Source: a virus
Length of the DNA: 64,000 nucleotides
Reading direction: 5' to 3' (one strand)
IMG/VR virus record: IMGVR_UViG_3300036820_000012
Span: 1-64,000 of that record
In this document: in pieces, positions 30,046 to 31,025 of the stretch
How positions within the stretch are numbered: the stretch's first letter is position 1
How the letters are laid out: every line of letters starts with the position of its first letter
The notes under the pieces: generated by a model
What the model was told of the DNA's origin: nothing
What the model saw: only the letters and a program-made list of their open reading frames with translations
Databases searched by the model: none
Program-made: the position numbers and the translations under genes

Positions 30046-30549
30046 TCACCAGGTCCCCAGGAGCAGCGACGTATCGTAGGCCGCTGTCATGCCGCCGGCG
30101 TACTGCTGAGCCCAGACGTGGGCCGGGTCAAGCGTGACGTGGTAGCGGGTGGCCATCTCCGCGAGCTCGGCTGCGGTGCGCTGCACGCCGTCGAGCGTTG
30201 CAAGCCACCAGCGCACGTTGGCCAGTCCCTGCAGCCGCGCGGCTGCGAGGGCGAGGTTGGCGAAGCTCGTGTAGCAGCGGGCGAGGTTGCCGGCCGCGAG
30301 GCGCCCTTGCGCCCAGGCACGCAGCGCAGCCGGGTCCTCGAAGCTCTCGTTACCCGGCTCGAAGTCGCATGCGCCCGCTCTGGCTGCGACGGCCTGCCCG
30401 GCGAGCACGGTGTTCCACCGGACGTGCGGGATCGCCTTCACCTGCTCGGCGGTGGCTGCGTAGCGGCCGTCGACATACGGGATGGCGTACTGGGTGCCTG
30501 CCGGGAAGTGCTCGCTCGCTGCGTCGTAGACGCGGATGATCTCGGTCAC
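30046..30549 (-). CDS. endolysin-like glycoside hydrolase (GH25/DUF1906-like), no cell-wall binding domain
   Basis: YD, Y.DG.Y, DFEPGN, WW.A..DG, AQQY, YD.S; end of lysis cassette. Confidence 0.75.
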   Translation of the reverse strand: MTEIIRVYDAASEHFPAGTQYAIPYVDGRYAATAEQVKAIPHVRWNTVLAGQAVAARAGACDFEPGNESFEDPAALRAWAQGRLAAGNLARCYTSFANLALAAARLQGLANVRWWLATLDGVQRTAAELAEMATRYHVTLDPAHVWAQQYAGGMTAAYDTSLLLGTW

Positions 30550-31025
30550 GGCTGGCGCTCCTTCGGGTCACGCAGCTTGCGGGAGTCGGTCACCGTTGGC
30601 TCGCTGGGCGGCCCGGCTCGCTCGTCGCGGGTGGCGAGTCTCTCGCTGGTGCCGTTCGGCTTCGCTGGCCTGCGCGCTGGGGGCATCACGGCCAGTCCCT
30701 TGTGGTGCTCCGCGAGCCGTTCTTCCAGGTGCCGCTTGATGCGTCCTTCGGCCTTGTCGACGTGGGTCGCTGTCAACCCGCTGGTAAAGAGGGAGAAGCT
30801 GGCGCCAAAGAGCGGGACCACCGACAGGCACTCGCCGGCGTTGACTATGTGCGCCCAGACGCCCACCGGGGTCACGTCCCCGCCGAGGGTCACGGCGTTG
30901 GCTAGCGCGTTGTAGAGCCCGTCCCAGACGCCGATGTGCATGGCTGCCGAGTAGGCGATGCCGAGCCCTGCGTCGAGCACCAGGGCGCTGGCGATCACCA
31001 GCAGGGCAACCCGGTGGTGCCTCAC
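30546..31025 (-). CDS. KcsA-like 2-TM ion-channel-fold protein with degenerate filter
   Basis: TM1 - WDGLY pore helix - VTLGGDVTP - TM2 (PLFGASFSLFTSGL). Confidence 0.7.
   Translation of the reverse strand: MRHHRVALLVIASALVLDAGLGIAYSAAMHIGVWDGLYNALANAVTLGGDVTPVGVWAHIVNAGECLSVVPLFGASFSLFTSGLTATHVDKAEGRIKRHLEERLAEHHKGLAVMPPARRPAKPNGTSERLATRDERAGPPSEPTVTDSRKLRDPKERQP

Follow-up and report, generated by a model that had tools for sequence, protein, structure and literature searches.

The closest described relatives of the gene treated here are KcsA and the other minimal K+ channels with two transmembrane (TM) helices (PF07885, including the viral Kcv-type channels), with which its product shares the architecture and a membrane core of about 100 aa. 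K+ channel genes of phages were listed by Greiner et al. 2018, among them those of Mycobacterium phages Myrna and Phabba, of Vibrio phages and of Lactobacillus phage PLE; all the listed proteins carry G(Y/F)GD, proteins lacking this signature were excluded and no function was assigned (PMC6163359). Two further systems invite comparison, namely the engineered channel NaK-CDI, built as a mimic of the AMPA-receptor filter (bioRxiv 10.1101/2022.08.08.502946), and the holins and pinholins, such as lambda S105, phage 21 S68 and the holin-like proteins of actinophages. We analysed a stretch of 64,000 nucleotides, hereafter the window, which is the first 64 kb of the 80.7-kb IMG/VR virus record IMGVR_UViG_3300036820_000012 (source soil metagenome, CheckV completeness 83%, G+C of the window 68%). 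Among sequencing runs, one DNA sample from a soil metagenome, probably the source, contains it, and no RNA sample is listed. Its minus strand carries a gene for a channel-like protein directly upstream of a probable endolysin gene. As in the phages listed by Greiner et al., some of which infect actinobacteria, this is a small two-TM channel gene of a tailed phage, but its filter is short where all of theirs read G(Y/F)GD; it also differs from K+ channels in lying in a phage late operon, coupled to a lysin. Our preferred reading, which we give an even chance of being right, is that the protein is a late-expressed, poorly selective cation channel that helps to depolarise the membrane, an accessory lysis-timing device and not a hole-former. 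The features on which the argument turns are the following.

30546-31025, minus strand: channel-like gene, 159 aa
30867-30926, minus strand: coding stretch for pore helix and filter, residues 34-53 (WDGLYNALANAVTLGGDVTP), the most conserved block of the short-filter clade
30046-30549, minus strand: gene of a compact GH25-fold protein of 167 aa, probable endolysin

The translation of the channel-like gene begins MRHHRVALLVIASALVLDAGLGIAYSAAMHIGVWDGLYNALANAVTLGGDVTPVGVWAHIVNAGECLSVVPLFGASFSLFTSGL. TM1 spans about residues 6-29, the pore helix residues 33-45 and TM2 residues 56-85, with the filter T46-L-G-G-D50-V-T-P53 between the latter two; residues 86-159 make up a long cytoplasmic helix and charged tail, 73 residues of which include 17 K+R and 12 D+E. 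An earlier note, made from the sequence alone, had recognised the KcsA layout of TM1, pore helix, filter and TM2. Both strings that it quoted are present (WDGLYNALANA, residues 34-44, and VTLGGDVTP, residues 45-53), and an AlphaFold2 (AF2) monomer model made from a 41-sequence alignment (predicted local distance difference test, pLDDT, 83) places its helices in the KcsA order: helix 2-29, helix 33-45, loop 46-55 and helix 56-111.

Taken alone, the protein stays below the threshold of the Pfam Ion_trans_2 model (E 0.31, 11.4 bits, cut-off 22.5), and the single sequence compared with PDB by phmmer reaches no more than E about 1, to Shaker. A database search returned 52 relatives of 97-164 aa, several of which read TTVGYGD, carry PF07885 and match the window protein at E 1e-19 to 1e-36. 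The Ion_trans_2 kinship expected by the earlier note is therefore found in close relatives, but not at significance in the window protein itself. Profiles reach further. That of 41 family members matches 177 K+ channel sequences in PDB, with KcsA the best at 2e-7, and one made only of short-filter sequences matches NaK-CDI at E 2.5e-8; when solely the closest short-filter members are used, K+ and NaK channels still come on top, but at E 0.36-0.5. Foldseek against PDB gives KcsA, NaK and AMPA-receptor pores as its only top matches (probability 1.0, target TM-score up to 0.8), and in the viral structure library BFVD the top matches are viral K+ channel domain proteins. Because the PF07885-bearing relatives, the family profile and the structure matches agree, homology is secure and the protein is a true relative of K+ channel pores, as the earlier note had supposed for its fold. 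We file it as a non-canonical member of the tetrameric cation-channel superfamily, neither a K+ channel nor a member of a holin family.

A tblastn search of the window channel against 50,697 isolated-phage records gave no match, and the canonical relative P0044 matched there only distantly, in Listeria, Lactobacillus, Acinetobacter and Enterococcus phages. Scanning with the short-filter alignment found no relative in genome contigs and one short contig in the metagenome set.

When T46-L-G-G-D50 is aligned to the TVGYGD relatives, a single gap falls exactly at the Tyr, which bears out the loss of this residue reported earlier; the signature of K+ selectivity, T-[VI]-G-[YF]-G-D, is absent from T-L-G-G-D. 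Equivalents of KcsA T75, G77 and D80 are kept, a Tyr occupies the W67 position, the equivalent of Tyr78 is deleted and that of W68 is N or C in the short-filter channels. This is no private feature of one phage. A profile search of 1.84 billion representatives gave 237 sequences at E 1e-10 or better, and among 198 family sequences 121 have the filter shorter by one residue and 67 the canonical one. The short-filter consensus is T-x-G-[G/C]-D, with TLGGD counted 31 times, TVGCD 16, TVGGD 13 and TDGCD 11 times. In a FastTree phylogeny the window protein falls within a clade of 81 sequences (support 0.93), 80 of them with short filters; a second short-filter clade of about 30 members is placed among canonical sequences. 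As far as a tree on a short alignment can indicate, more than one loss of the Tyr is thus possible.

In the 18 closest sequences (mean identity 53%) it is the pore helix and filter that do not vary, with G36, L37, Y38, L41-D50 and P53 as invariant residues. The canonical and the short-filter class alike have T46 and G48 invariant, in the latter with 120 of 120 and 119 of 120 sequences, respectively. Other positions changed along with the filter. The column equivalent to KcsA W68 holds W in 59 of 66 canonical sequences, and among short-filter ones 77 times C, 16 times N and 8 times Y; the window protein has Y38 and N39 at the W67 and W68 positions and consequently lacks the Trp pair of the aromatic cuff. 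W68 of KcsA is reportedly the hydrogen-bond partner of the filter Tyr from the neighbouring subunit (Doyle et al. 1998), and as both are gone here, the partners were lost together. The other KcsA pair, W67-D80, is kept as Y38 and D50. TM2 of the short clade gains E65 and C66, and the outer-filter position is Cys in 44 of 120 short-filter sequences.

One could still maintain that we are looking at a decaying K+ channel whose broken filter has no function, since the protein is sub-threshold against Pfam Ion_trans_2 and the signature residue of K+ channels is gone. We consider this very improbable. The reading frame is intact, the 121 short-filter relatives include a well-supported clade, the filter block is the most conserved of all, second-site changes are coordinated with it and the operon position is kept. 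A pseudogene was likewise rejected as contradicted by the conservation pattern. The word "broken", used of the filter in the earlier note, is therefore misleading: across a large clade no block is better conserved than the pore helix and filter, and other positions changed in coordination with them. Because the short filter occurs in 121 of 198 sequences, T46 and G48 are invariant, the W68 column has co-changed and the pore helix with the filter forms the invariant block, the alignments show a coherent redesign under selection, in a conserved lineage, and not decay.

What such a redesign could achieve is suggested by ionotropic glutamate receptors (iGluR) and by NaK-CDI (PDB 7oor, 7pa0, 8a35). 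A profile of TVGCD-type sequences only has as its best matches the engineered NaK C-DI mutants 7pa0 and 7oor (E 2.5e-8 and 7.9e-8), and the natural T-a-T-T-V-G-C-D-v-t-P aligns without gaps to T-L-T-T-V-G-C-D-I-S-P of NaK-CDI. The window protein shares the G-x-D-x-x-P spacing, reading G48-G-D-V-T-P53. In the AMPA and kainate receptors the pore loop is Q-Q-G-C-D-I-S-P, and the family filter is equal in length and nearly equal in sequence to its G-C-D-I-S-P; AMPA-receptor chains are also among the top Foldseek matches of the channel model. The window protein differs from both in having Gly for Cys and Leu for Val, and from the receptors in having no ligand-binding domain. The resemblance to the iGluR filter is most simply explained as convergent. 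NaK-CDI conducts monovalent cations at about 66 pS; its ions bind the inner S3/S4 sites formed by T and V, while the C-D-I part is a wide mouth with little ion coordination (bioRxiv 10.1101/2022.08.08.502946). The filter of the window protein, as aligned, is of this shorter iGluR/NaK-CDI type, and by analogy we predict a poorly selective cation pore. The earlier suggestion that it is non-selective and depolarising is thus reasonable so far as the likeness to a conducting filter type carries. Many relatives (P0085, P0099, P0109, P0134, P0138 and others) read T-T-V-G-C-D-V-T-P, near letter-for-letter TTVGCDISP of the NaK mimic. In a tetramer of these, the outer mouth would carry four Cys, which could render the pore sensitive to metal or redox state.

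The second element of the argument is the gene downstream. The channel stop TGA (30548-30546) overlaps with the GTG start (30549-30547) of the open reading frame (ORF) 30046-30549 as GTGA, and a Shine-Dalgarno sequence, GAAGGAG, lies 8 nt upstream of that start, within the last codons of the channel gene. The overlap claimed earlier is hence real and includes a ribosome-binding site inside the channel 3´ end. To call the product a lysin is less simple. The 167-aa protein has no sequence match in Pfam, PHROG or PDB, and the Pfam GH25 model (PF01183) does not match it at E up to 1. Its profile finds only a spurious coiled-coil match among PDB sequences, hhalign of its family against a Pfam-positive GH25 protein from the related locus L009 shows no similarity (probability 0.1%), and tblastn against the same 50,697 isolated-phage records gave no match. 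Its family consists of 31+ hypothetical proteins, and D9, D27, D62, E64 and D159 are invariant in 31 sequences.

The fold is more informative. The AF2 model (pLDDT 93) has 1sfs and 2wag as best Foldseek matches, and VIA-align relates it to 21 GH25 or GH25-like chains, including the endolysins Cpl-1, phiSM101, CTP1L, Ply40 and PlyB, with Z 9.0-12.3 and root mean square deviation 3.2-4.3 Å over 136-152 residues; generic TIM barrels reach Z 7.6 or less. With the muramidases Cpl-1, PlyB and phiSM101 the fold agrees at Z 10-12 over 141-152 residues. The order of acidic residues, D9, D62-x-E64 and D159, is that of the GH25 catalytic set, a correspondence of sequence order only and not of superposed residues. 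From these muramidases the protein differs by being only 167 aa long, without a wall-binding domain and without a PF01183 match, and its best single structural match, 1sfs, is an uncharacterised GH25-like protein. No hydrophobic segment was found in it, that is, no TM, signal or signal-anchor-release (SAR) segment. The Pfam models Amidase_2, GH25 and M23 find nothing else in the 80.7-kb record. Judged at the level of fold and not of sequence, the protein is very probably the endolysin, a muramidase, and the earlier assignment of the coupled gene gains support from the modelled GH25 fold with Z up to 12.3. The compact family (146-169 aa, invisible to PF01183) is also present in loci L113-L117; in L116 and L117 the lysin directly follows tail-fibre genes and a small single-TM protein, and in L114 it stands after a Phage_holin_2 gene.

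Both genes are the final two of a run of small genes that goes from 33426 to 30046 on the minus strand, 3´ of the tail fibre gene, and ends at a terminator hairpin. The gene layout of the minus strand is of siphovirus type. The remaining features of the window that matter here are:

62784-63971, minus strand: major head protein
49353-53396, minus strand: tape measure
34620-38279, minus strand: tail fibre, 1219 aa, beta-helix; tail proteins are also on this strand
33007-33426, minus strand: tm139, membrane protein with coiled-coil tail, first gene of the cassette
32621-33035, minus strand: two small soluble acidic proteins of 61 and 87 aa within the cassette, syntenic in L001
32163-32624, minus strand: tm153, cassette protein with a single TM, syntenic homolog in L001
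31979-32140, minus strand: tm53, small hydrophobic holin-like protein of 53 aa, syntenic 57-aa homolog in L001
31623-31982, minus strand: tm119, two-TM protein with a Cys/His knuckle directly after TM2
31138-31593, plus strand: HNH endonuclease gene inserted between tm119 and the channel gene (PHROG 374/8790/3377, E about 1e-36)
31022-31130, minus strand: orphan remnant of a tm119 gene of the second type, namely its 3´ end (...ISAWCNRHHEDARPEETLEDKLDELIALLRERV), left next to the HNH insertion and coupled by its stop, through GTGA, to the start of the channel gene
29944-29983, minus strand: hairpin resembling an intrinsic terminator, 18-bp stem followed by CTTTTTTCGT, about 60 nt past the lysin stop
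26010-27401: serine integrase

The hairpin at 29944-29983 is the end of the late or lysis operon. It has T runs, separates the convergent lysin gene from an 83-aa ORF on the plus strand (29673-29924) and probably terminates transcription in both directions. A search of 29500-34700 for sigma-70-like promoters found none. Between the tail fibre gene and the cassette, 33649-34110 of the minus strand encodes a protein of 153 aa whose C-terminal region resembles a helix-turn-helix (HTH) and which also has a CHC2-like zinc ribbon, matched weakly by Pfam Zn_ribbon_DnaG at E 0.009; a weak homolog lies in L001 on the opposite strand, downstream of the L001 lysin. The four further membrane proteins of which the earlier note spoke are all there (33007-33426, 32163-32624, 31979-32140 and 31623-31982), but not "unusually many", since a total of five is the upper edge and not an outlier. 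Cassettes with three or four holin-like genes are called common in Gordonia phages (PMC9671378), and five membrane genes are not exceptional for actinophages.

For the neighbourhoods of relatives we used viral loci of IMG/VR and loci of metagenome-assembled genomes (MAGs). In L001 the whole cassette (tm139, p87, p61, tm153, tm53, tm119 and channel) is repeated after a tail fibre gene, and the next gene encodes an Amidase_2 protein. L009 has a channel with canonical TVGYGD followed by a Pfam GH25 protein (82 bits), which is also a PHROG endolysin. In L113 a lysin 95% identical to that of the window is preceded, again with the GTGA overlap, by a channel with a variant pore (T-T-S-G-C-N) and the same tail. 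The slot after the channel is consequently filled by three types of lysin, namely Amidase_2 (L001), Pfam GH25 (L009) and the type of the window (L113 and the window itself). The equivalent position upstream of lysins in L001, L009 and L113 upholds the membership of the channel in a lysis cassette. The long charged channel tail occurs together with the GH25-like lysin in the window and L113, and similar tails are found in the proteins P0002, P0003, P0012 and P0014; in L001, whose lysin is an amidase, the tail is short.

Comparison of the window with L113 also reveals a junction. From 30732 to 29930, over the channel tail, lysin and terminator, the DNA is 94% identical, and upstream there is no identity. 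Position 30732, near residue 98 of the channel, is accordingly a recombination breakpoint within the gene: the block of tail plus lysin forms one mosaic module and the pore domain, which is exchanged as a cassette, another.

The most constant companion of the channel is tm119. By tblastn, its homolog lies immediately upstream of the channel in 22 of 23 viral loci of the channel family (L001, L002, L004-L024; none was found in L008) and likewise in 5 MAG loci, and the stop and start codons of the two genes usually overlap. The earlier note had not recognised this partner. Members of the family have two TM helices with a conserved W-S-G-F motif in the loop and, directly after TM2, a predicted zinc-knuckle-like element, N-C-H-x3-C-x-R-x-G-(9-11)-C-x2-H-H. 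They belong to no Pfam or PHROG family, and their Atlas clusters consist of unnamed hypotheticals from Actinomycetota and Uroviricota (phage). The family, which is undescribed and both phage and actinobacterial (members include L005:5630-6013, L012:5633-6019 and L114:4552-5007), is found in lysis cassettes that may or may not contain the channel. No channel accompanies tm119 in L114, where it is directly coupled to a GH25-like lysin and adjoins a gene matched by Pfam Phage_holin_2 (35.9 bits), or in L126 and L127, where it precedes tail-terminator or terminase genes. The dependence is one-sided: the channel comes with tm119, and tm119 can stand alone. Such a pattern fits the role of a holin-like core for tm119, with the channel as an addition that acts either upon tm119 or jointly with it. 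In the window itself, the orphan tail at 31022-31130 resembles the tm119 C-termini of L012, L017 and L019, which are of the other subtype, and the tm119 gene at 31623-31982 ends as a different subtype from that tail. The HNH region, 31022-31687, looks like a gene replacement that arrived with the HNH gene.

The same partnership could be read without any ion flow. The channel protein might then be a non-conducting scaffold, a membrane regulator (antiholin or assembly partner) that binds tm119, and its "filter" a surface binding protein or metal. The channel almost never occurs without tm119, which does occur alone; the outer-filter Cys of 44 out of 120 sequences and the Glu-Cys of TM2 could bind metal together with the tm119 knuckle; and the lysin and the charged C-terminal tail are inherited jointly, in a single mosaic block. 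We nevertheless think this unlikely. The inner ion sites of K+ and NaK channels are formed by the backbone carbonyls of T46 and G48 and by the Thr hydroxyl, and both residues are present practically without exception in the short-filter class; an engineered channel with an equivalent filter conducts, and canonical TVGYGD members occupy the same genomic slot.

If the protein is instead the accessory lysis-timing channel that we prefer, lysis might proceed as follows. The protein would assemble as a tetramer, with the inner T-x-G sites kept and the outer mouth wide, through which Na+ and K+ would pass with little selectivity. Upon late opening, cations would run down their gradients and the membrane potential would collapse. 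Holins fire upon membrane de-energisation. The collapse would accordingly trigger the holins, tm119 and/or other small membrane proteins, and these would give the lysin, which has no signal, access to the wall. For a single open pore of tens of pS we estimate a flow of about 1e7 to 1e8 ions per second; such a flux is comparable to the whole K+ content of a bacterium, and tight gating would thus be needed. One may speculate that gating relies on conserved residues (H30, H88, H99 and an N-terminal H-H-R) and on the long helix at the C-terminus. In its widest form the proposal says that a large lineage of uncultured actinobacterial phages turned a K+ channel into an iGluR-like non-selective pore which, together with tm119, serves as a depolarisation switch timing lysis; this we advance tentatively, as possible and somewhat doubtful.

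The resemblance to holins and pinholins has limits. Like them, the channel is a small membrane protein with a charged cytoplasmic tail, coupled directly upstream of an endolysin gene and placed among other small membrane proteins, and the depolarisation proposed for it is the effect of a pinholin. It differs in having no sequence or fold relation to holin families and in possessing a defined channel fold where holins form oligomeric rafts or heptameric pinholes. "Pinholin", the label given by the earlier note, does not fit in the strict sense, because the channel cannot itself let out a folded lysin of 18 kDa and its partner lysin is without a SAR domain. A pairing of pinholin and SAR endolysin was rejected for want of a hydrophobic segment in the lysin.

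Several observations weigh against a role in lysis timing. Pfam (E up to 1) and PHROG (E up to 0.1) scans of the channel protein return no holin family. The fourth filter position of the window protein is G and not C, which makes NaK-CDI only a near analogue. The channel is dispensable for whatever tm119 does, since tm119 occurs alone in L114, L126 and L127. The K+-selective canonical form and the short-filter form, despite their expected different effects on membrane potential, share one genomic slot. Finally, the linkage to lysins anticipated by the earlier note is frequent but not universal. About half of the viral loci have the module away from any recognisable lysin; it stands before terS/terL in L002, L020 and L021 (in L019 with an HTH gene between), and before the tail terminator in L010, L011, L012, L014/L024, L016, L018, L022 and L023.

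In the tail-terminator lineage, Pfam finds nothing significant in the candidate lysins upstream of the module. The tm119-channel pair of L010, L011, L012, L016, L018, L022, L023 and L024 is flanked by a head-tail connector-like gene on one side and the tail terminator (phrog_17840) on the other; next comes a glycosyltransferase-like gene (Glyco_trans_1_2), unusual within a structural module. In actinophages, holin-like cassettes have been described at a distance from the lysin (PMC9671378). Canonical mini K+ channels closely akin to those of the phages also occur widely among MAGs of Mycobacteriales, Acidimicrobiales, Frankiaceae and Solirubrobacteraceae (L033-L112), with a tm119 homolog upstream in only 5 of these 80 loci; most of them may be cellular genes or belong to differently organised prophages.

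The scattered positions lend themselves to another explanation, in which the channel, like Kcv, is a gene of host physiology or exclusion that alters ion balance or potential for the sake of replication or against superinfection, and stands beside the lysin only because mosaic late operons accept insertions there. Canonical K+ channel genes are indeed present in unrelated phages with no lysis role assigned (PMC6163359), positions between head-tail genes or before terminase are typical moron sites, and the pore domain is exchanged as a cassette, with a breakpoint at about residue 98. Yet the gene is translationally coupled in late operons and has no promoter and terminator of its own, as morons usually have; three types of lysin stand directly downstream in four loci, and in L114 the obligate partner, tm119, stands coupled to a lysin, with the Phage_holin_2 gene adjacent. 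On this evidence we regard the explanation as improbable.

We found no literature that links a channel-fold protein to a lysis cassette or describes the short-filter lineage; our coverage of the literature is incomplete and novelty is not proven by it. The compact 167-aa GH25-fold lysin and the zinc-knuckle partner tm119 represent undescribed families as well.

Taken together, the genomic setting gives a phage channel a role in lysis timing that is open to direct test. Its filter is a natural, strongly conserved version of the one-residue-shorter filter that was earlier engineered into NaK, and proteins of 100-160 aa could serve as minimal natural models of non-selective permeation in tetrameric channels. 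If our assumptions hold, phage lysis would have a new class of control protein, one that rests on a genuine ion-channel fold and is, at the same time, a natural minimal model of the iGluR-type filter. A real ion channel that triggers holins would add a new class of component to phage lysis, and it may explain why actinophage cassettes contain so many membrane genes.

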